Shown here: piece after piece, positions 4,653 through 54,732 of the stretch
How the letters are laid out: each line of letters opens with the position of its first letter
Numbering within the stretch: the first letter of the stretch is position 1
Virus record (IMG/VR): IMGVR_UViG_3300025732_000016
Source of the DNA: a virus
Taxonomy: Duplodnaviria; Caudoviricetes
Length of the DNA: 64,000 nucleotides
Direction: 5' to 3' (one strand)
Program-made: the position numbers and the translations under genes
Notes under the pieces: generated by a model
What the model was told of the DNA's origin: nothing
What the model saw: only the letters and a program-made list of their open reading frames with translations
The model's database searches: none

Positions 4653-5288
4653 CTATCTACCCACAAGGATTCTTATTATCTCGTTAGCGAGATGGTTGCT
4701 CGGCATGGAACCGTGCTGCTTTGCAAGCTTGATGTAGTCTGGGTGCTTCATGATCTGGGCAGAAAGTCTATCAGTCTTACCCGTCTTTCTTGCATAATCG
4801 ATAGATCTCTTTGGAATTGAAGAGGCAAAGAGCGGTGCCATCTTCTGGGCTGCTGCTACAGTATCAGCTCCCCCCCTGCTACCGAGTCGATCGAGAGCAG
4901 CCGCCTGTGCCCATGTCTCAGGGGTGTCCTGGAACTCTTCGACCTGACTCAGGACGTCGAGAATCTGGTCGTCGTCCATAGGCTGGAGTTGCATTGAAAC
5001 CAGTGAAGCCATCTCGGCTGTGTCTGGGTCGTCCTCTGCGCCACCGAGGATTTGGAGGAGGATGCCCATTGCTCCCTCGGCGTCTCCCATCCCGATGTAT
5101 GACCTGATGGTACGAAGATCAGAAGCGTGTGGGTTCGTAAACGCGATAATCTCCTGAATGGTCTGGGGGAGGTCGAGATTCTGGTAAAAGCTCTCGCGTA
5201 GACGGCGGGAACGTGGACGACGTGAAAGCTTTGCAGCCTCCTCACGGATGATCTGGCGAAGACGTGACTCTGTAAGACGGATTGCCAT
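4653..5288 (-). CDS. Hypothetical protein with conserved leader (putative internal head protein)
   Basis: MAIRLTESRLRQIIREEAAK; RBS GGAGAAAATCAA. Confidence 0.8.
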   Translation of the reverse strand: MAIRLTESRLRQIIREEAAKLSRRPRSRRLRESFYQNLDLPQTIQEIIAFTNPHASDLRTIRSYIGMGDAEGAMGILLQILGGAEDDPDTAEMASLVSMQLQPMDDDQILDVLSQVEEFQDTPETWAQAAALDRLGSRGGADTVAAAQKMAPLFASSIPKRSIDYARKTGKTDRLSAQIMKHPDYIKLAKQHGSMPSNHLANEIIRILVGR

Positions 5289-5318: not shown

Positions 5319-5744
5319 TCAGGTACGTGACCAAGGGATGGCCCCTGGCCTTTTCTCACCGGTCCTGGCATCAGTGCACAAGTCATCCCAGACGGAACGC
5401 TTTATGGAGTCATCCATCATATCAGTGTTGAGTCCCATCTTGTTCGCGAAATCGTTGAACGTCTTGAGGGCTGCCATCGAGTACTTGGGATCACGAAGGG
5501 CAGACATTATCATTACGCCGTACGAGCTACCCGATGGTGACCTTGGATGCTTTGTGGATGCGAGCTTGTCAAAGAGACGGTTCCCTGCATTTCTCATTGC
5601 AGCGGCTGATTGGTACTTCAGTCCTTTGACGAATGGCTCAGCGATGGAGCCCTCTGGGTCGGATGAAACGAGTGGTGATCCCATCTCATTGATTTCCTGT
5701 CTGATGATCTTGCGGAGACGAGACTCTGTAAGACGGGTTGACAT
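5319..5744 (-). CDS. Hypothetical protein with conserved leader (putative internal head protein)
   Basis: ATG 5744 with GGAG RBS; MSTRLTESRLRKIIRQEINEM. Confidence 0.8.
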   Translation of the reverse strand: MSTRLTESRLRKIIRQEINEMGSPLVSSDPEGSIAEPFVKGLKYQSAAAMRNAGNRLFDKLASTKHPRSPSGSSYGVMIMSALRDPKYSMAALKTFNDFANKMGLNTDMMDDSIKRSVWDDLCTDARTGEKRPGAIPWSRT

Positions 5745-5798
5745 ATGAATTTTCTCCAACGAACAATCCTTACATATACACTCACGAGGTAAAAACAA

Positions 5799-13037: not shown

Positions 13038-14303
13038 CTACGCGCCGCGTTTACCTGCGTTCCGTATTTTTTCAATACCTGCCTTCACAGTTTTCTCGAG
13101 CTCAGAACCAGGAGCAACTTTCTCCAGCGTGTCTAGAGGCGTGTCAGATTGATATTTTTCGAGATATTGCTTACGAAGCTCTTCAGTCTGCTTCACTATC
13201 GATGCCTTAGCATCAACTACTGTCTTGCCGAGAAGGTTGCGAAGCTGGTAAGCTTTCACAGCCTCTATCATCTGCTCTTCTTTCTCTGGAGTTTTTATTC
13301 CGATCTGCTTGAAAAGATCGTCAATCTTGTTCTTCTTCTTTGCAGCATCGACGGCCTTCTTTGCAGAAGATTCCAAGAATTCGGGCGTGAGCTGTTTCAC
13401 GCCGTCGATGGAATAGGGTGTACCATTGAGAGTTTCAATTGCAGACTTCACTTGCTCGATAGTTTTTGCGGCTGCAAGCTTCTGCAAGAAAGAGACCGGA
13501 GCTTCGAGAGTTCTAGCAAAGGAGTCGGCTTCTTCACGCTTTAGCTTCACCACCTTACTCACGGCTTCGCTGTCGACCCCAAAAGTCTCAGGCGGAAAAT
13601 TCTTCAACCCCTCTGAGTAGAACTTCGACAGCATGGAAGGAATGCTTTCTCCCTTTTGCTCGAGGATTACACCCTCAGTCTGACGTGAGAGGAGTCCGAA
13701 AATGTTGTCGAGAGTTTGCTGGATTTTCTTTTGAGTCGCCTCCATCCTCTCGGGACTCGCAGCAGTTCCAGCAGTGGCGCTCATCCCAGCAGCAATGCCG
13801 AGTGTGTCTGCCGTTGCTCTGTCTTTCGGATCGTCCAAGTCAAGGTTCATCGCTGTCTTAGCCCATGAAAGCCACTTGGAGTTCTCAACATCGACGCCGA
13901 CGTCCTTCAGGAAGGTGCGAGGCCCCACGAAGCCGCTGCTTCCCTCCTTTGCGAATTGGTAAGCGACATACGCGCCCGGATTGGCGACAAAGAGAAGCGG
14001 CTCGACTTCGCCGAACTGCTCCTTGATCGGACCGATGATGGTGTTATACTCCATCGCGACTTCCCCCGCTCGAGCGTCATATTTCCTAAAGGCTTCTTCA
14101 ATTGCTTGGGGGTCGGTGCGAAAGATGAGCTCAACATTCAGAACGAGGACTGAGAGCAGGGACTTTATCGCAGTCCCAAAGACTCTAAACACGTCAGTGA
14201 ATGACTTCCAAACGTCCTTGATGTCTTGGGCAGAAAAGTCTCCTGCTGCTTCTGCAAGCAGAATCTCTTTCCTAATGTAGCCCCTGAGCTCAGACTCTTT
14301 CAC
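13038..14303 (-). CDS. Hypothetical protein with conserved leader (421 aa)
   Basis: MKESELRGYIRKEILLAE. Confidence 0.75.
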   Translation of the reverse strand: MKESELRGYIRKEILLAEAAGDFSAQDIKDVWKSFTDVFRVFGTAIKSLLSVLVLNVELIFRTDPQAIEEAFRKYDARAGEVAMEYNTIIGPIKEQFGEVEPLLFVANPGAYVAYQFAKEGSSGFVGPRTFLKDVGVDVENSKWLSWAKTAMNLDLDDPKDRATADTLGIAAGMSATAGTAASPERMEATQKKIQQTLDNIFGLLSRQTEGVILEQKGESIPSMLSKFYSEGLKNFPPETFGVDSEAVSKVVKLKREEADSFARTLEAPVSFLQKLAAAKTIEQVKSAIETLNGTPYSIDGVKQLTPEFLESSAKKAVDAAKKKNKIDDLFKQIGIKTPEKEEQMIEAVKAYQLRNLLGKTVVDAKASIVKQTEELRKQYLEKYQSDTPLDTLEKVAPGSELEKTVKAGIEKIRNAGKRGA

Positions 14304-15334: not shown

Positions 15335-15730
15335 TCAATCGACTCCATGAACTTGTCGAACTCGAAGGTCTGATTCTCTTCGCTCATCTTCCACCTCTTC
15401 GATATGTATTGCCCTCAACTTGCAACGTAGAGTTTCGATATTGCAAGAAACTTCTCCGATGCTATAGTCGAAGCCGAGGTCTATGCCTGCAATGCTGAGT
15501 CTCTGTCCAGCGACCAGAGTTATCAAAGTTCCCGGGTCTGTCGTGCACTCAAAATCTATTTCTATTACGGGTGGATAGCTCCTGTAACCCTTCAGCACTC
15601 CTACAGCAGTACTGCCCACTGTGACCGTGTATTTTTGAAAGCTACTTGTCTCTATGCTCGCTTGCAGAGATTCCTTGAGCGAGTCAGTGATGTAGACTTC
15701 GCCGTCAATATCCTCTAGTTTCACTTGCAA
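15335..15730 (-). CDS. Hypothetical protein (131 aa)
   Basis: TTG start; fills gap. Confidence 0.55.
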   Translation of the reverse strand: MQVKLEDIDGEVYITDSLKESLQASIETSSFQKYTVTVGSTAVGVLKGYRSYPPVIEIDFECTTDPGTLITLVAGQRLSIAGIDLGFDYSIGEVSCNIETLRCKLRAIHIEEVEDERRESDLRVRQVHGVD

Positions 15731-16055
15731 TCTCTTCTATCATGTTTCTGAAGCGGGAGTCGAGTGATGTCTCAGACTTCACACTCACTTGCAAACCCTT
15801 CACTGTCAGGGTGGTGTAGATTCCCATTTCCTCTTCAAGCTCAAGATAACAGTTGACAAAATCTTGTAAGTCTTCACGTCTCTCGAACCTTATTGTCCTG
15901 TCCAGCTCGTCGTTTCTTGACCACGGAACTTTTTCGACTGATACTGGAAGGCTATGGCCGCCGACGCCAAAATTTGGAAGGAAGTCATAGCGAGTCGTCG
16001 GGGTCGGAGCTGACTTTTCCTCGAGATACTCACGAAGTAGCGTCTTCAATTGCAA
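15705..16055 (-). CDS. Pterin-4a-carbinolamine dehydratase (PCD/DCoH)-like fold protein, degenerate
   Basis: TTG 16055 (LKTLLREYLEE leader); W....LDRTIRF....DFVN...E.EE pattern; catalytic His not evident. Confidence 0.45.
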   Translation of the reverse strand: MQLKTLLREYLEEKSAPTPTTRYDFLPNFGVGGHSLPVSVEKVPWSRNDELDRTIRFERREDLQDFVNCYLELEEEMGIYTTLTVKGLQVSVKSETSLDSRFRNMIEEIASETRGY

Positions 16056-16056
16056 C

Positions 16057-16419
16057 TCAGCCTCCCAGCTCAGCCGTTCCCTCTGCGTCTTCCTCACCAG
16101 CCTTGTCAACCAGGGCCACAAATTGTCTGTAGAACTTTTCTATTTGACTATCTGGAACCAGCTTTGAGAGAGCATCCATCGCCTTTCCAAGCTCAACTTG
16201 GTTCGATGGGACAAACTCTGGATCCTCGACAGGCGGTCTCTGCGTGTGAAGTTGAGTTGCAGTCTGATCACTCGGATTTATCGGAAGGCGAGAAGGAACG
16301 GTTAGCTGCTGTTTCTCATCCTTGCCGTGTGGTGTGGTGCCAGTTGTGGTGGCGAGGGCCTCGCGAAGGATCGACCTTATCGCGCTTTCCCGGGTCGTGA
16401 TTTTCAGCTTGCTCTTCAC
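16057..16419 (-). CDS. Hypothetical protein with leader motif
   Basis: ESAIRSILREAL; late-type motif at 16443-16450. Confidence 0.7.
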   Translation of the reverse strand: MKSKLKITTRESAIRSILREALATTTGTTPHGKDEKQQLTVPSRLPINPSDQTATQLHTQRPPVEDPEFVPSNQVELGKAMDALSKLVPDSQIEKFYRQFVALVDKAGEEDAEGTAELGG

Positions 16420-16697: not shown

Positions 16698-16958
16698 TCA
16701 CCCTCCGCTGATAGCTTTGTAGACAGCATCCGCATCCGTCTGCGTCACCCTCTTGATGACTTTCTCTCTCTTCATCCTGGCTATTTCTGAAGCGAATTTG
16801 ACGAAGTCTTCGTCACCATCAAGAAAGTGATTGATGCACTCTTCAAGAAAATCCTGCATCGTTATCTTCTGTTGTATGCACGCAGTCTTGAAAGAGATGT
16901 GCTTCTCTTCTGAGACTATCGTGTGGATGGATCTTCGAGCCGATTCAGTCTTATTCAC
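16698..16958 (-). CDS. Ribbon-helix-helix-like DNA-binding protein
   Basis: RRSIHTIVSEEKHISFKTACIQQKITMQDFLEECI resembles ParG/CopG RHH pattern. Confidence 0.5.
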   Translation of the reverse strand: MNKTESARRSIHTIVSEEKHISFKTACIQQKITMQDFLEECINHFLDGDEDFVKFASEIARMKREKVIKRVTQTDADAVYKAISGG

Positions 16959-17419
16959 GCAGTGGGAGTCCTTGCACCTACAGCAAAATTAGTATTTGCT
17001 TCTTCCTCTTGTTTAGCTTCTGCGCTGATGCTGTATTCCTTGTCGAGAATTTCCAAGAGACTGTCAGACGTCTCCTCATCATAAGAGTTCTTCACATAGT
17101 TCTCTGCCATCTGCAGGACGGTTCCCTTGATGTCTAGCAGGTACTCTGCATTCTCTATCAGTCGAGCAACCTCCGAAGCGAAGGTCTCAAGGTTGATTTC
17201 AGGCTTGCCATCCGCAGCCTCCTCATCGGCCTCGAAGAGGAATCTCATCGACTTCCTACGGATCGACTCTTCAACACTCGTTGCATCGAGTGGGTCTCTC
17301 GCGGCGGCGCTACCGATCGAGGCTCGCTCGGCCTTCGTGAAGAAGGCGAGGACCTGCGCATCGAGGGACTTTTCAGGTCCGACCTCGGGAGCCTGTGCTT
17401 CTCTAAGAATCTTTCTCAT
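16955..17419 (-). CDS. Hypothetical protein with leader motif (154 aa)
   Basis: MRKILREAQ; SMRFLFEA. Confidence 0.7.
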   Translation of the reverse strand: MRKILREAQAPEVGPEKSLDAQVLAFFTKAERASIGSAAARDPLDATSVEESIRRKSMRFLFEADEEAADGKPEINLETFASEVARLIENAEYLLDIKGTVLQMAENYVKNSYDEETSDSLLEILDKEYSISAEAKQEEEANTNFAVGARTPTA

Positions 17420-18120: not shown

Positions 18121-18618
18121 TCAGGCCTCCTTGTAGTGCTTCTCAAACTCTTTCTGGTCGACGACGAACATCGTCTCCCCCTTGTCTTCCCTTGGAGGAG
18201 CCTTCTCCTTCGGGTGAGCCTTCCTTCCATAGTCTCGTTTGTCTTCCTTTTCTTCGTCCTTCTCAGGGTCCGAGTCTTCGAGGACCTCATCCCTGAGCGG
18301 TGGGACAGCGATTCCTGGGATCTCACTTGGCTTTTGCTGTGAGGGAGGTCTCGCAGTCTTTGGAACCTCGTCGGCTGGGGGCTCAACCCTCGGTTCCTCG
18401 GGAGAGCGGAGGACAATCTTTGCGTCACCGGGCTCGCCGGTCACTCCCTTCACAGTGTAGATGAAGCCCGAAGGCTCGTGCTTCACCTTCAGGTCCTTCC
18501 CGATGATGAGCTTGCCACGGGAATCGAAGATCTCCATCTCATTGAGCTGGCTCTTCAGTCTTTCCTCGTACTCCTCACGCATGAGACGGATAATGTCTTT
18601 CGGCTTGAACTTACGCAT
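18121..18618 (-). CDS. Hypothetical protein (165 aa)
   Basis: IIRLMREEYEERL leader variant. Confidence 0.7.
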   Translation of the reverse strand: MRKFKPKDIIRLMREEYEERLKSQLNEMEIFDSRGKLIIGKDLKVKHEPSGFIYTVKGVTGEPGDAKIVLRSPEEPRVEPPADEVPKTARPPSQQKPSEIPGIAVPPLRDEVLEDSDPEKDEEKEDKRDYGRKAHPKEKAPPREDKGETMFVVDQKEFEKHYKEA

Positions 18619-31579: not shown

Positions 31580-32221
31580 TTACTCCTTCCTCTTGTTATC
31601 CCAGATTGTACGGGAGAAACACTGGAGATGGTCGAGGAGACCATCCATGTCCTCCTTTTTCACTGAGGCTTTTATCTCTATCATGTCGCCCACGACCTCG
31701 GCGGTCACGCTCCCGGGACCCTTCGGTCCGAGACGAAGGGAGCAGATTTCACTCTCTGAGATTGGTCGATAGCCCCAGAGATCCACGCAGACGTTCACTC
31801 TCTTGCCGCTGACGACGGGACCTTCGTGTCGATGACCGTGAATCTGTAGAGCAACGTGGTCGAGGACAGACTCTGGCAGTGGCTTGTGACAGAGGAGAGC
31901 GCTCCTTCCATCGAGGAGACTGATGGTCTTCCGTTGCCAGACCTCGTCAAAGCCCGAATCGAGCATAGTCCGATGAGACCTGTCGTGGTTTCCCCTGATG
32001 AGGATCTTCTTGCCCCGAAGCTTCCTCACTAGTCCCGCTCCCGCCCCTGCATCTCCGAGAAATACGTCACCGACGACGTACACAGTGTCTTCCTCTTTGA
32101 CCGTCTCATTCCAGCGCTCGATTAGCGCGGCATTCATGGCTCCCAGAGACTCGAAGGGGCGGGAGCAGTATTTCAGAATGTTCTCATGGTTCAGGTGGAG
32201 GTCGCTGGTGAACCAGTTCAA
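31580..32221 (-). CDS. Calcineurin-like metallophosphoesterase
   Basis: FTSDLHLNH, VGDVF, RGNHD, LCHKP, IHGHRH. Confidence 0.9.
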   Translation of the reverse strand: MNWFTSDLHLNHENILKYCSRPFESLGAMNAALIERWNETVKEEDTVYVVGDVFLGDAGAGAGLVRKLRGKKILIRGNHDRSHRTMLDSGFDEVWQRKTISLLDGRSALLCHKPLPESVLDHVALQIHGHRHEGPVVSGKRVNVCVDLWGYRPISESEICSLRLGPKGPGSVTAEVVGDMIEIKASVKKEDMDGLLDHLQCFSRTIWDNKRKE

Positions 32222-32222
32222 G

Positions 32223-33251
32223 TTAGACTCCGAAGATCTGGCGGACCCTCTCACCCTGCGTGACGTTGAGCTTCCTCATCTTTGCCTCCTGTTCAGGAGT
32301 GATGTCCTTGGAGAGCTTCCTTCCAACATTCTCGTCCATTCCCTCTACGAAGGAATCGTAGATTGTCGTCAGCATCTCCCTCGAATCAACATCACCGGCT
32401 TTCTCCATTGTCCTTGCCAGTCCTACAATACCATAAGCAAGTTCTGATATGTTTACATCGTCTGGGTTCAATCCCGGATATTGTTCGAGGAGAGGGTCAG
32501 CGACGTAGGCTCCCTCGATGACGTAGTCCGCGATGTCCCTGAAGAAGCTCCTGAAGTCTGTAGAGACGGAGTGGTAGGTGATGCCGGCCCTGAACTTGGA
32601 GGGGACCCTCTCACCGTCCTTTAGACGAGCCATCACACCCTCAGTGCCGATAGTGAGGACGAGGTAGTCACCGAGAGCCTTGTAGAGGTTACCGGTGACA
32701 TAGCCCTTGATACCGCGCTCGGGAGTGTAGCGACCCTTCATCCACTCTGAATAGCTTGGATGCGTAACGACTGTATCAACTTGCGCCAGACCGCCTGAAG
32801 GGACTTTGACAATGATCATGAGTGGGTGACCGCCCACAGTGAGATCGACGTCGACCATTGGGGGCCTGACCGTCGTGAGGTACTCGGTGAGGAGATCGGT
32901 GTATTCTCTGACTGTGAGAGCCTCCTCTTTCCTCCTCTCTGTCAGATCCTTTCCAGTGTAGTCGACCGGGAAGGAGACAAGGTAGTCGATGTCACCGTAA
33001 GTCGCGCTCGGACGATCGACAATGTCTCTCTCAGCGTGAGTTGCAGAGCCTGTCGGACGAATGGGATCGAGCGGAGCCTTGCCTCTCGACTTGAGCCATT
33101 CATTGAACCCTTTTAAAAATTCTCTGTAGACTCCGCCCGCTTCTCTCACTAATGACGGTGTGAGATCTCTACGGTGCTCAGGAGGAAGTTTTAGACCACC
33201 CTCACTGAGGTAGGCCCTTACCAACTGACGAAGTTCTTTAATTGAGTTCAT
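32223..33251 (-). CDS. Pol beta-superfamily nucleotidyltransferase with head-type leader
   Basis: TGS...YGDIDYLV and QVD third carboxylate; N-term ELRQLVRAYLSEG. Confidence 0.65.
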   Translation of the reverse strand: MNSIKELRQLVRAYLSEGGLKLPPEHRRDLTPSLVREAGGVYREFLKGFNEWLKSRGKAPLDPIRPTGSATHAERDIVDRPSATYGDIDYLVSFPVDYTGKDLTERRKEEALTVREYTDLLTEYLTTVRPPMVDVDLTVGGHPLMIIVKVPSGGLAQVDTVVTHPSYSEWMKGRYTPERGIKGYVTGNLYKALGDYLVLTIGTEGVMARLKDGERVPSKFRAGITYHSVSTDFRSFFRDIADYVIEGAYVADPLLEQYPGLNPDDVNISELAYGIVGLARTMEKAGDVDSREMLTTIYDSFVEGMDENVGRKLSKDITPEQEAKMRKLNVTQGERVRQIFGV

Positions 33252-33481: not shown

Positions 33482-34558
33482 CTATGACCCCGTTAGAATG
33501 AGAACTGTCCCAGCAGTGCCTGCGGCGCCGGTGGTGCCGCCATTTGCGCCATTTCCGAAGGCGCCCCCCACTGATGAAACTGTTCCAAGATTGATGACCG
33601 TGTTTGCTGCAACGATGACTCCGCCGCCTGCGCCGCCACCGCCGCCGCCGGCTTTTGTAGTACCACCTGCTGATGTTCCATTTGCACCGTTCCCACCGAT
33701 TGCACGAATTGTTCCAGCGTTATTAAGGGAGTCACAGAAAACGTAGCAGTTCGCCGCCCCTCCGCCACCGCCGCCGCCCGTCCCAGAATTGACACCGTCG
33801 CCGTTGACAGCCCCACCACCGCCGCCGCCCGAACCGTTTATTGATTGCACGGTTGCGACGTTGAAAACTCTACGTCGAACAAAGAAACCGATGTCACGCC
33901 AGCCTGTCACCACTGCAACAGGGGCAACAGTGGTGTTACCAGTTCCACCCGCTTGAGCGCCCGCGCCGCCGCCCCCGCCGCCGCTGGAGTTCGAGCCAGC
34001 TCCTGACGCATTCGAACCCGCAGCGTTTCCGGTCGTCGGACCGCCGCCGTTTCCTCCCCCGCCGGTTGAGTAGTTCCAGGACCCCTGGTTGGAGATTGCT
34101 CCACCTGCCGTGGCGTTTGTCGCATCGTTACCCTTCGCCTCGTAGGTTCCGTTGTTCGTCAGGGTCCCTTTCACAAAAGGGAGAAACCCAGCAACCCGAA
34201 GTGTCACCCCCGAGTTGATCGTGAGATCGCGAAGGTAGGCATCGCGGGTCATCGTATAGACGGAGCCCACTCTCGACGCCCAACTTACAGAAGCAGAACC
34301 ATCGAGAGTCGCCGAACCGTCTGACGCATCACCAAGGAAAGATGAGGGTATGTTGAAATTCTGGGCGCTGATACTTCCCGTTATGATGAGGGCTACGCCC
34401 GTGCCAGCGTTAATGGTGACAGCCCCTGAGTCTGCAGTGATCGTTCGACCCGTTCCCACCCCGCCGTTATCGTAAGCATCATCGAGTGAGTAGACAATGT
34501 CAGCGGGCCCGAGACTGTTGTCGGCAACCTGCAGACCTCTGATCCTTGTGGGTGGCAT
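33482..34558 (-). CDS. Glycine-rich tail-fibre/appendage-like protein
   Basis: Repeated GGGGGG/GGNGAN tracts with beta-repeat linkers; 358 aa. Confidence 0.7.
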   Translation of the reverse strand: MPPTRIRGLQVADNSLGPADIVYSLDDAYDNGGVGTGRTITADSGAVTINAGTGVALIITGSISAQNFNIPSSFLGDASDGSATLDGSASVSWASRVGSVYTMTRDAYLRDLTINSGVTLRVAGFLPFVKGTLTNNGTYEAKGNDATNATAGGAISNQGSWNYSTGGGGNGGGPTTGNAAGSNASGAGSNSSGGGGGGAGAQAGGTGNTTVAPVAVVTGWRDIGFFVRRRVFNVATVQSINGSGGGGGGAVNGDGVNSGTGGGGGGGAANCYVFCDSLNNAGTIRAIGGNGANGTSAGGTTKAGGGGGGAGGGVIVAANTVINLGTVSSVGGAFGNGANGGTTGAAGTAGTVLILTGS

Positions 34559-34567
34559 TTTAGCTCC

Positions 34568-35356
34568 TTATCGTATCCTTTTCTCAGGGCGTGTGCCGAG
34601 TTTCCTCCGCTCAGCGCCAGACTTTATCCTGCGAACTCTTCCGAGTCTATCGACGATGTCGAACTCGGGCTCAGACTCGAGCTTCACAATGATGTCTTTG
34701 AGGACATCATCATCTGGTGTAGGTATCTGCATTACCCTGCAACAAGCATGCAAAACTTGAATTCGCTTTTGCGTGTCACCGAAAGAGATACCCCAGTGCC
34801 AGCTAATCGTCTTCTGAGATCCCTCGATCTCATCCCTGATCGATCTTATCTTTGACTCCAGAGCCCTCTCCAGCTCTGCAGTGGGGATCTCCACTTCAAT
34901 CTCAAGTTCTGCAGCGACCTCAGCAAGAGACTCATATTTCTTCTCGTGATACGCTGAAGTTGCTTCTCTATATAGAGAGATGAGCCTTTCGCGCTGATTG
35001 TCAGTGAGCCTTTCATCGTTGCCTATCCTGTCTGGATGCGTCTTGAGCGCGATCATCCTGTAGGCTTTCTTTGCCCACCCAGGCGTCGAATCAGCAGGAA
35101 TCTCACCAGTCGCTTCATCCTCTTCTAGTGGAGGTGGTGGAGGCGGTGGGTGTGAAGACTCTGGGGGATTTTGCTCACCGACAGGCCGTCTAATGTCAGG
35201 CGAGCTTTCCCTTTCGACTATCTTCGTGAAACGAGAGAGGGCCACAATCGCCCTGTTCACATCGTGATCGTAGGCCGCCTTTCTCTCAGAAACTTCATCC
35301 CTCTCATCCTTGAGATCTCTGAGGGCTTTTGCGAGGGACGAGGCCCTTGACATCAT
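34568..35356 (-). CDS. J-domain (DnaJ-type co-chaperone) protein
   Basis: KKAYRMIALKTHPDR with intact HPD. Confidence 0.75.
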   Translation of the reverse strand: MMSRASSLAKALRDLKDERDEVSERKAAYDHDVNRAIVALSRFTKIVERESSPDIRRPVGEQNPPESSHPPPPPPPLEEDEATGEIPADSTPGWAKKAYRMIALKTHPDRIGNDERLTDNQRERLISLYREATSAYHEKKYESLAEVAAELEIEVEIPTAELERALESKIRSIRDEIEGSQKTISWHWGISFGDTQKRIQVLHACCRVMQIPTPDDDVLKDIIVKLESEPEFDIVDRLGRVRRIKSGAERRKLGTRPEKRIR

Positions 35357-53198: not shown

Positions 53199-53226
53199 AT
53201 TGTAGAAAGTGTAGTAGAGTTGTTCA
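53199..53226 (-). promoter_or_regulatory. Putative promoter TGAACA-N16-TACAAT for SSB
   Basis: Recurring class. Confidence 0.65.
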
Positions 53227-53607
53227 GTAGCGCGGAGTCAAATGTTTCTTGACGTGGTGATGAGAGTCGAAAGGACTTTCAGACCCACCGAATGAACGTG
53301 CGAGTCTCTCGACTGAGTCATAGTACATCTGCTCACGGGTGCGTGGGACCTTCCCAAATGTTGAATCAGGTTTCCCGTCTCCGTCGTAATCACCAGAAAC
53401 TATGACAGAGCCAGCAGAATAGACTGTGCTCGCCTCCTTGATCTTTCGCTTCTTCCCGATTTCTGAGTCAGGATAGTGAGCGTCCGTTCCGAGCGGCATG
53501 GCGGGACCGCCGCCAAGAGCTGCGACACCAGAGAATTCGTCGAGGCCCTCTTCCTCCTCGATCTCCTCGATCATCTCTCGAATGATGGCCCGTAGTTCTC
53601 TGTGCAT
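53224..53607 (-). CDS. Hypothetical protein with leader motif
   Basis: MHRELRAIIREMIEE; AATACTTA at 53612-53619. Confidence 0.7.
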   Translation of the reverse strand: MHRELRAIIREMIEEIEEEEGLDEFSGVAALGGGPAMPLGTDAHYPDSEIGKKRKIKEASTVYSAGSVIVSGDYDGDGKPDSTFGKVPRTREQMYYDSVERLARSFGGSESPFDSHHHVKKHLTPRY

Positions 53608-54207: not shown

Positions 54208-54234
54208 ATTCTAAGAGCTTGCCGTCGAAGTTCA
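54208..54234 (-). promoter_or_regulatory. Putative promoter TGAACT-N15-TAGAAT
   Basis: Recurring class. Confidence 0.55.
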
Positions 54235-54732
54235 ACCCTTGTAGGTGATTATGACAGCAAATTTCTCGCTTCCCTTCTGCTCTTTGCCCGTGCCACCGAG
54301 CTGGATGTCGTCTCTCACAAAATCAAAATCTATCAGCCCATTTGAAGTGGCGGCAAGAAGAGTCGCTTGCACGTAGCGAGGTGCCTGTGACTTTGGCACT
54401 GCTGGAGTTTTACCGGCGATCATTGTTATTGGGATTGAGATTCCCTTGTCTGCCTTCTGCGGCCTCTCAAACGCGATGCCCAGCTCAGACTTCGTGAATA
54501 CCTCGATGAGGAAGTTTAGGACCTCATCGAGCTTGGTGTTTCCCTTTGTCTTGTAGTTGTCGACCTTCAGCCGACGAAGAAGCTCAGTCGGATTCGTGGC
54601 TGCAAGACCGAGTGATTGCCTCGCCTTCGCAGAGATTCTGCCTGCGCCAAGACCTTTTCTCGTTGAGTACTTCGGCCCTTCCTCACTGAGGATCTTACGA
54701 GTGTGGTGTCTGATGAATTGCAAGGTGTCCAT
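54232..54732 (-). CDS. Hypothetical basic protein with leader variant
   Basis: FIRHHTRKILSEEG; AATAGTTA at 54738-54745. Confidence 0.7.
   Translation of the reverse strand: MDTLQFIRHHTRKILSEEGPKYSTRKGLGAGRISAKARQSLGLAATNPTELLRRLKVDNYKTKGNTKLDEVLNFLIEVFTKSELGIAFERPQKADKGISIPITMIAGKTPAVPKSQAPRYVQATLLAATSNGLIDFDFVRDDIQLGGTGKEQKGSEKFAVIITYKG

Follow-up and report, generated by a model that had tools for sequence, protein, structure and literature searches.

A PolX-like nucleotidyltransferase coupled to a metallophosphoesterase in an uncultured giant T4-like phage: a candidate pair for nucleic acid end repair

Background

The locus described here raises the question of what a nucleotidyltransferase and a phosphoesterase, encoded with a single base between them, could do together in an uncultured, giant, T4-like phage. 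The two genes lie in a stretch of 64,000 nucleotides (the window) from the IMG/VR virus record IMGVR_UViG_3300025732_000016 (Duplodnaviria; Caudoviricetes), and all genes around them are on the minus strand. They are called NT (the nucleotidyltransferase gene) and MPE (the metallophosphoesterase gene), and are arranged as follows:

32223-33251, minus strand: NT, ATG start, 342 aa, a Pol-beta-fold, PolX-like nucleotidyltransferase of an unannotated family
31580-32221, minus strand: MPE, TTG start, 213 aa, a binuclear metallophosphoesterase of the aq_1665/phrog_547 clade
32219-32225, minus strand: the NT-MPE junction TAA-c-TTG, indicating translational coupling

An earlier note, made from the letters of the sequence, had described these genes as an injected writer/eraser pair and had offered tRNA repair, NMPylation of host proteins or jamming of defence signals as possible functions. 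The best reading of the current analysis is that the module serves nucleic acid end repair, and that it joins an unrecognised family of PolX-like nucleotidyltransferases to an uncharacterised and very common phage phosphoesterase. More specifically, NT and MPE are tentatively proposed to act as a pair that repairs the 3' ends of broken nucleic acid, with a slight lean to RNA as the substrate.

Sequence family and catalytic motifs of NT

No match to NT was found in Pfam, PHROGs or NCBIfam, and searches against PDB sequences (phmmer and profile search) gave chance matches only, with no polymerase among them. Homologues were found in large numbers, with 144 in a set of 5.8 billion proteins and at least 172 cluster representatives at 50% identity, none of which carries a Pfam domain. 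Many of these homologues sit on contigs of 100-300 kb. One named record, assigned to Bathyarchaeota, comes from a contig of 288 kb and probably represents a mis-binned phage. Three divergent members of the family matched none of 50,697 cultured phage records by tblastn, and the family is apparently restricted to uncultured phages.

In an alignment of 38 homologues, which are 37-89% identical to the window protein, G68, S69, G86, D87, D89, Q157 and D159 are invariant, and D76, Y85 and the block W170-G194 are invariant or nearly so. The sequence fits hG[GS]...[DE]h[DE]...h[DE]h, the pattern of Pol-beta-superfamily nucleotidyltransferases, and the GS...DxD...D motif that had been read from the window behind a leader is borne out at the following positions:

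33045-33050, minus strand: G68-S69, the GS motif of nucleotidyltransferases, invariant in the alignment
32985-32993, minus strand: D87-I-D89, the first two metal-binding carboxylates (YGDIDYLV), invariant in the alignment, with codons confirmed in the sequence
32775-32777, minus strand: D159, the third carboxylate (Q-V-D-T), invariant in the alignment together with Q157

Predicted fold of NT

An AlphaFold2 model built from the 38-sequence alignment has a pLDDT of 91.6 and a pTM of 0.86; its weak stretch, with pLDDT below 50, is residues 13-20, which link the N-terminal helix to the body. NT combines the motif triad with a helix-strand-GS-helix-strand arrangement in the model, in agreement with the Pol-beta superfamily. 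The model was compared by VIA-align with one representative for each of 48,161 PDB clusters, and 50 matches were listed. The nine best are all family X DNA polymerases (Z 8.9-10.3). Pol beta (3k75_D) is the top match at Z 10.3; Pol X of African swine fever virus (ASFV; 5hr9_A) reaches Z 10.2 (rmsd 3.2 Å over 169 of its 176 residues), and Pol lambda, Pol mu, TdT and T. thermophilus (Thermus) PolX are found at Z 8.9-9.9; Leishmania Pol beta is also among the nine. These matches span the model from residues ~5-27 to 268-278, that is, both palm and thumb. The next group, at Z 7.5 or less, consists of CD-NTases, small alarmone synthetases, GLD-2, TUTases, OAS and poly(A) polymerase, and it covers only palm residues 28-180. 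Down to rank 31, the matches listed are Pol-beta-fold nucleotidyltransferases or inactive relatives of that fold, and the Foldseek ranking agrees with the VIA-align order. In BFVD the best match is A0A6J5TD12, an uncultured-phage protein of 1,096 aa (E 1e-19, TM 0.72), after which giant-virus PolX proteins are ranked. A0A6J5TD12 is named ParB/Sulfiredoxin, so the NT domain also occurs fused to a ParB/Srx-type domain. Two parts of NT can be distinguished:

32442-33173, minus strand: palm and thumb-like subdomain, residues 27-270, from the VIA-align comparison with family X polymerases
32226-32441, minus strand: C-terminal three-helix domain, residues 271-342, with helices at 268-284, 290-313 and 319-340

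The C-terminal domain lies beyond the PolX matches and gave no informative structural match. The 8-kDa dRP-lyase domain and the helix-hairpin-helix fingers of family X are absent from NT, in which the palm helix is preceded by no more than the leader of 17 residues and an arm of 10.

At the level of sequence, neither the PolX models of Pfam (PF14792 and PF14791) nor the RlaP model PF10127 matched any of the 38 members at E values up to 5. When a single true mini-PolX sequence was compared with the NT family by hhalign, nothing was found; a profile of the 176-aa phage PolX placed helix-GS-GDIDxhV correctly, at a probability of 2%. Because this profile match is so low, NT is described as PolX-like in its modelled fold and is not called a member of family X. 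A 176-aa mini family X polymerase is encoded at L049:1159-1686 on the minus strand (PF14791, and in some relatives PF14792, as precomputed; motif YQSTG...NEYGL), ~10 kb from an NT-family gene and on the same 238-kb contig as locus L035. A match to Peptidase_S77 is located ~2.4 kb away from this gene, as part of a 629-aa open frame (L053).

The nucleotidyltransferase fold expected by the earlier note is thus supported by the model and its PDB matches. CD-NTases, CCA-adding enzymes and MNT proteins had been named there for comparison, but NT is closest to family X polymerases, thumb included, and these three identities were dropped, the matches being palm-only or poor.

The palm that NT has in common with CD-NTases, OAS/cGAS-like enzymes and small alarmone synthetases (Z 5-7.5) could also indicate a nucleotide-signal module, in which NT makes, or MPE degrades, a cyclic or linear oligonucleotide messenger and thereby jams or mimics host defence signalling; phage calcineurin-like phosphodiesterases have been proposed as signal degraders (PMC7824862). 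Such a role appears very improbable. The matches are limited to residues 28-180, with Z 5-7.5 for the palm alone of CD-NTases and the cGAS-OAS group and an rmsd of 8-10 Å in full-length alignments, and the partners and fusions of NT described below are ligase-like and NMNAT-like, not effectors or sensors. There is still less reason to regard NT as a protein or small-molecule nucleotidylyltransferase (MNT/AbiEii-like or aminoglycoside-NTase-like) that AMPylates a host target, with MPE as its eraser. The minimal Pol-beta motif is common to such enzymes, and in one ESM-Atlas neighbour cluster 33% of the members have PF01909; none of these families, however, is found among the 50 structural matches listed, a HEPN or antitoxin partner is absent, and NT has a thumb-like subdomain.

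The MPE gene and its phosphoesterase clade

The start of MPE 2 nt after the NT stop, as first read from the window, was confirmed: TAA (32225-32223) is followed by the single base c (32222) and by TTG (32221-32219), with GGAG located 6 nt upstream of the TTG. Since the equivalent codon is ATG in L004 and GTG in L003, the TTG at 32221 is taken as the true start of MPE rather than the in-frame GTG at 32254 given in the list of open reading frames. In relatives, too, the NT and MPE genes abut or overlap.

MPE was correctly described as a calcineurin-like phosphoesterase. It matches Pfam Metallophos (PF00149) at 25.7 bits, above the cut-off of 21.5, phrog_547 ('phosphoesterase') at 2e-48 and, by phmmer, the sequence of PDB 1xm7 at 1.3e-11. 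The five motifs are complete and invariant in 13 NT-linked sequences (D7-x-H9, G51-D52, G77-N78-H79-D80, H112 and H128-G129-H130-x-H132), and catalysis is predicted from them. An AlphaFold2 model (pLDDT 93.4) superposes on Aquifex aq_1665 (1xm7), a protein of uncharacterised function, at Z 20.4 over 158 residues with an rmsd of 2.2 Å. Lesser matches are LpxH (Z 13.4), MJ0936 (11.2), YfcE (10.4), Mre11 (~9.8), the Pseudomonas putida MPE (6nvo; 9.2), lambda phosphatase (8.8) and the Clostridium thermocellum Pnkp phosphatase (7.8). With TIGR04123, the model for PdeM and the P. putida MPE, the score is 23.5 bits, below the cut-off of 150. The modelled fold is thus that of a small binuclear phosphoesterase that should be active, and it is silent on the substrate.

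The structural matches end at about residue 164, and the remaining residues are added to the core:

31583-31729, minus strand: C-terminal extension of MPE, residues 165-213, a beta-hairpin (strands 171-177 and 180-186) and a long helix (189-212)

This extension is kept in NT-linked MPEs; for most homologues from cultured phages, the alignment ends near residue 162. Members of the MPE family occur in 1,633 records of cultured phages, including Vibrio, Pseudomonas, Staphylococcus, Listeria and Bacillus phages. In Vibrio phage K354 a homologue is immediately adjacent to an Rnl1-type RNA ligase; in a Bacillus phage one has DnaB and Mre11 as neighbours, and in phage CBB one is near the DNA polymerase.

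Conservation of the gene pair

Forty IMG/VR loci with an NT relative, or 33 when near-identical loci are counted once, were scanned with the MPE profile over all six frames. MPE is linked to NT in 17 of the 33 distinct loci, in either gene order. It lies directly downstream of NT in 13 of them, and directly upstream in three loci of a clade whose NT is ~31% identical (upstream gene against phrog_547, 3e-48). In L026 it is one gene further downstream, with an XPD/DinG-type helicase between NT and MPE. In a maximum-likelihood tree of NT, MPE-linked rows occur in both deep branches, with several losses. Conservation of the pair, which had been suggested as a check, is therefore found on both sides of the family. 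In L035, which belongs to the clade with MPE upstream and has no MPE, that position is taken by another phosphatase, which looks like a non-homologous replacement of the MPE partner:

L035:5060-6010, plus strand: PAP2-superfamily phosphatase, 317 aa (PF01569, 31.6 bits), its stop overlapping the start of the NT downstream

Synteny without joint function has to be weighed here. MPE might be a general phage phosphoesterase, and NT an independent and possibly head-borne enzyme, as would agree with the 1,633 cultured records that have the MPE family and no NT, with the 16 of 33 distinct loci that have no MPE within 6 kb of NT, and with the lack of any NT-MPE fusion among 261 family proteins. The adjacency, however, persists in the distant clade, where the gene order differs and MPE is upstream, is kept down to ~30% NT identity and in both deep branches of the tree, and involves genes that are tightly coupled or overlapping; where MPE is missing from L035, the PAP2 phosphatase is itself translationally coupled. 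Independence of the two genes is thus considered improbable. The NT-MPE linkage is conserved, ancient and robust to gene-order change, and it is not obligate.

Operon partners and domain fusions

In eight distinct loci (L010-L014, L025, L027 and L040), NT and MPE are followed in an operon by an NMN adenylyltransferase-like (NMNAT-like) gene and an RNA-ligase-like gene. The NMNAT-like protein, of ~270 aa, starts MKLGLYGGGFKPFTTGHF and contains an HxGH motif; its PDB profile matches are the NMN adenylyltransferases NadR and NadM, at ~1e-3. The ligase-like protein, of ~410 aa, has an EKxDGQN (KxDG) motif, and five of seven members match PF09414 (RNA_ligase), the best at 1.3e-6. These two partners occur either as separate genes or fused in proteins of 950-1,560 aa. 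On the contig of L009, a ligase-like gene is located ~19 kb off, with an NMNAT-like gene next to it.

Similar associations can be observed within single proteins. The NT domain is found fused after DUF6267, which we take to be a ligase-like family, after cytidylyltransferase/NMNAT-like domains, and with an amidoligase; in polyproteins of 944 and 990 aa, such as P0151 and P0165, it is the middle domain. The ligase-like partner in the NT-MPE branch matches PF09414 and not DUF6267. DUF6267 was not found in the contigs of five relatives, a search in which the control genomes gave no signal either. In L024, a fusion protein of 695 aa has a C-terminal half with no relationship to either the ligase-like family or the NT family.

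A further arrangement is found in a sister of the window's clade:

L007:3287-7868: ligase-like gene (689 aa), NMNAT-like gene (opposite strand), NT and NUDIX gene (PF00293, 7.9e-18) in a row

The NMNAT-like and Nudix genes of L007 recall the bifunctional NadM-Nudix enzymes, and this part of the module may handle NAD+. The NUDIX gene was considered as a replacement for MPE; this was dropped, since by comparison with NadM-Nudix it is more likely paired with the adjoining NMNAT-like gene.

Among the three functions proposed by the earlier note, repair is the one favoured by the RNA-ligase-like gene of the operon and by the ligase-like and NMNAT-like fusions; NMPylation and the jamming of defence signals are unsupported.

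The N-terminal leader of NT

The N-terminus of NT reads MNSIKELRQLVRAYLSE followed by GGLKLPP, and two features are assigned to it:

33201-33251, minus strand: leader of NT, residues 1-17, modelled as a helix with low confidence and variable in length among homologues
33198-33203, minus strand: predicted prohead-protease site between E17 and G18 (L-S-E/G-G, the slash marking the cut), family-wide [LIVM]-x-E/GG

Among 127 NT-family members having both GGxK and YGDxD, GG is preceded by Glu in 113, by the start Met in 13 and by Val in one. In every member with an extension P3 is Leu, Ile, Val or Met, and P1 is Glu in 113 of 114. Moreover, in 19 of 22 multidomain fusions [LIV]-x-E/GG stands ahead of the NT domain, while the linkers are otherwise unrelated. 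The T4 protease gp21 cuts after L/I-X-E, and the short N-terminal propeptides of T4 internal proteins are capsid-targeting sequences (PMC9026906). Of five contigs of relatives, four encode a homologue of gp21 (Peptidase_S77) that scores above the cut-off of Pfam. The leader of NT is probably a detachable helix, acting as a propeptide or head-targeting tag, and cleavage between E17 and G18 is plausible as judged from the motif.

A leader motif, [LIVM][RK]..[LIVM][RK][EQAK], occurs in the first 30 residues of nine of the 76 minus-strand genes of the window, an enrichment of about six-fold over the remainder of those proteins (binomial p = 2e-4). Eight genes other than NT carry it, all on the minus strand:

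1011-1688, 4653-5288, 5319-5747, 13038-14303, 15705-16121, 16057-16419, 16955-17419 and 53224-53607, minus strand: leader genes
18121-18618 and 54232-54732, minus strand: possible further leader genes

Most encode small, functionally unassigned proteins and are grouped at 13-18.6 kb. Examples of these helical leaders, of the LRxxIRE type as in NT, are MRIAEAQLRRVVREE, MAIRLTESRLRQIIREE and MHRELRAIIREMIEE.

MPE starts without a leader, and so do the NMNAT-like and ligase-like proteins of relatives. The description of an injected pair is therefore not supported: only NT looks head-loaded, and if anything is injected, it would be NT alone.

Possible role in nucleic acid end repair

In the proposed pathway, MPE would remove a blocking 3'-phosphate or 2',3'-cyclic phosphate, or trim the end, to leave a 3'-OH. 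NT would then add one or a few nucleotides back onto this end, and the ligase-like enzyme, encoded in the same operon in relatives, would seal the break. The leader of 17 residues would probably be removed after L-S-E17 by the T4-type prohead protease, so that G18 is the first residue of mature NT, which may be carried inside the head. The logic of a writer and an eraser is thus probably reversed, because MPE would prepare the 3'-OH for NT instead of undoing its product, and the need of NT for that 3'-OH would account for the tight coupling of the two genes. RlaP nucleotidyltransferases are known to add 1-2 nucleoside monophosphates to RNA 3'-OH ends and to reject 3'-phosphate (bioRxiv 10.64898/2025.12.29.696909), and jumbo phages are reported to combine such nucleotidyltransferases with phosphoesterases and ligases (PMC7824862). 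Based on this precedent and on the RNA-ligase-type partners, RNA, such as cleaved tRNA as in RlaP-type repair, is slightly preferred over DNA as the substrate.

DNA has also to be considered, because of the PolX-like thumb, the helicase and single-stranded DNA-binding protein genes near NT in some loci, and the possible packaging with the genome. NT might be a miniature family X polymerase for gap filling or end tailing, with MPE as the cleaner of 3' ends, in the manner of the PHP domain of bacterial PolX or the phosphoesterase domain of LigD. Carried in the head with the genome, as ASFV Pol X is, it would repair nicks, gaps or damage by restriction, either on entry or in the course of replication. 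The nine best structural matches of NT are DNA polymerases, thumb included, giant-virus PolX proteins are among the BFVD matches, and the leader implies co-packaging with DNA. Gene positions also agree with a DNA substrate. DNA polymerase III alpha is encoded 1.3 kb from the pair, which lies amid nucleotide-metabolism genes; in L029 a gp32-like gene is found downstream of NT, with a UvsW-like helicase ~3 kb beyond, and the XPD/DinG-type helicase of L026 has been mentioned. Homologues of MPE stand by DnaB/Mre11 and by a DNA polymerase in cultured phages, and MPE has a weak match to the DNA-repair nuclease PdeM. Position, however, is not decisive, since in T4-like phages the early nucleotide-metabolism regions hold RNA-repair genes too. 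The partner ligase of relatives matches the RNA_ligase family, and NT has neither the 8-kDa and helix-hairpin-helix parts nor a PolX Pfam match. Its profile aligns non-significantly with the true phage mini-PolX on the contig of L035; with that gene, the L035 phage already owns a true PolX. Repair of DNA by the pair is judged possible and a little less likely than repair of RNA.

Several observations weigh against the proposed repair of RNA ends. The best structural matches of NT, being DNA polymerases, pull against the lean to RNA, and sequence profiles tie NT to neither PolX nor RlaP. The clade of MPE has no known substrate; in the structural search its model was not near any enzyme of known polynucleotide specificity, being no closer to the end-healing enzymes (Pnkp, Z 7.8; P. 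putida MPE, 9.2) than to LpxH (13.4). The pairing is not obligate, as the 16 distinct loci without MPE and the more than 1,600 cultured phages with MPE and without NT indicate, and none of the cultured phages searched has NT. No ligase-like or NMNAT-like gene was found within the 64-kb window; the RNA-ligase/end-healing neighbourhood is a feature of relatives (the eight operon loci and L007). A leader on NT alone would be odd for enzymes acting as one kit, and the invariant GG, with K21, may serve the catalytic domain of the enzyme rather than cleavage.

Repair of nucleic acid ends by the pair, with RNA slightly preferred, remains the best reading. A broader scheme, in which NT is head-packaged, protease-matured and injected, and MPE heals 3' ends for a nucleotide-restoring nucleotidyltransferase and a ligase, would be an undescribed pathway of four enzymes (MPE, PolX-like NT, NMNAT-like enzyme and ligase), but in this full form it is doubtful. 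The conflict between phage and host is known to be fought in part over the repair of cleaved tRNA or of damaged DNA. NT defines an unannotated family of the Pol-beta fold, nearest to family X by structure and invisible to sequence models, and the operon of NT, MPE, NMNAT-like and ligase-like genes suggests a testable role for a very common and unexplained phage 'phosphoesterase' (aq_1665/phrog_547). If the leader is a real head-loading tag, a repair enzyme would join the short list of known phage head cargo, and injected proteins of T4-like phages could become predictable from sequence.

Other features of the neighbourhood

Two further genes lie upstream of the pair:

33482-34558, minus strand: glycine-rich protein of 358 aa, weak match to phrog_13336, composition fibre-like or beta-helix-like
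34568-35356, minus strand: protein of 262 aa with a sub-threshold match to the DnaJ J-domain

A full DnaJ gene is present near the MPE-NT pair of L031. In one clade of NT, the downstream gene encodes a conserved protein of 276-289 aa (L016:7038-7865, L018:7065-7928, L019-L023 and L028), which begins MNVVGLGKAGCAIA and has no match in Pfam or PHROGs. By eye, its SGGSKIAGA motif is reminiscent of the nucleotide loops, rich in glycine, of proteins of the FtsZ/tubulin or Rossmann type.

The T4 late-promoter consensus TATAAATA has zero occurrences in the 64-kb window, so this T4-like phage must use other late-promoter signals. Scans of the window for sigma-70 promoters and terminators gave results at chance level.

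Comparison with known systems

The logic of cleaning, filling and sealing broken ends is known from T4 Pnkp with Rnl, bacterial Pnkp-Hen1, LigD and bacterial PolX-PHP. Within family X, NT closely resembles ASFV Pol X (174 aa, 5hr9): in both, a Pol-beta palm, which has GS and three Asp, leads into a thumb-like subdomain, and both are without the 8-kDa and fingers parts. NT differs from family X in its 17-residue spacer between GS and DxD, its additional C-terminal three-helix domain, and its leader and GGxK arm. Bacterial PolX has a fused PHP phosphoesterase domain for the cleaning of 3' ends (PMC2566882), whereas the phosphoesterase of NT is a separate protein of the calcineurin type.

RlaP (PF10127, which includes T4 NrdC.11) is common in jumbo phages (PMC7824862). 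Like NT, it is a Pol-beta nucleotidyltransferase, and it is tied genomically to RNA ligases and end-healing enzymes, as NT is in relatives. Because RlaP acts on a 3'-OH and not on 3'-phosphate, an enzyme of this kind would profit from having a phosphoesterase as its partner. PF10127 does not match NT, however, no solved RlaP structure is among the matches listed, and RlaP is not known to carry a head-targeting leader such as that predicted for NT.

Pnkp-Hen1, T4 Pnkp-Rnl and LigD follow the same order of cleaning, filling and sealing that is proposed here for NT and MPE. The phosphatase of C. thermocellum Pnkp is a binuclear metallophosphoesterase that acts on 2',3'-cyclic phosphate ends (PMC3675462). 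In contrast to these systems, no kinase was found with NT and MPE, and the components are separate genes. MPE belongs to the aq_1665 clade and is related to the Pnkp phosphatase only at Z 7.8, and the polymerase of LigD has a primase-type fold, whereas that of NT is the Pol-beta fold.

The last comparison concerns the cargo of the T4 head. Like the gp21-trimmed proteins IPI-III and Alt, NT has a short, predicted N-terminal helix that ends in L/I-x-E before a small residue, and a gp21-type protease is encoded by relatives. The leader of NT (LRxxIRxxLxE) is unrelated to the T4 tag, and NT, as a putative cargo, would differ from that of T4 in being a nucleic acid enzyme.

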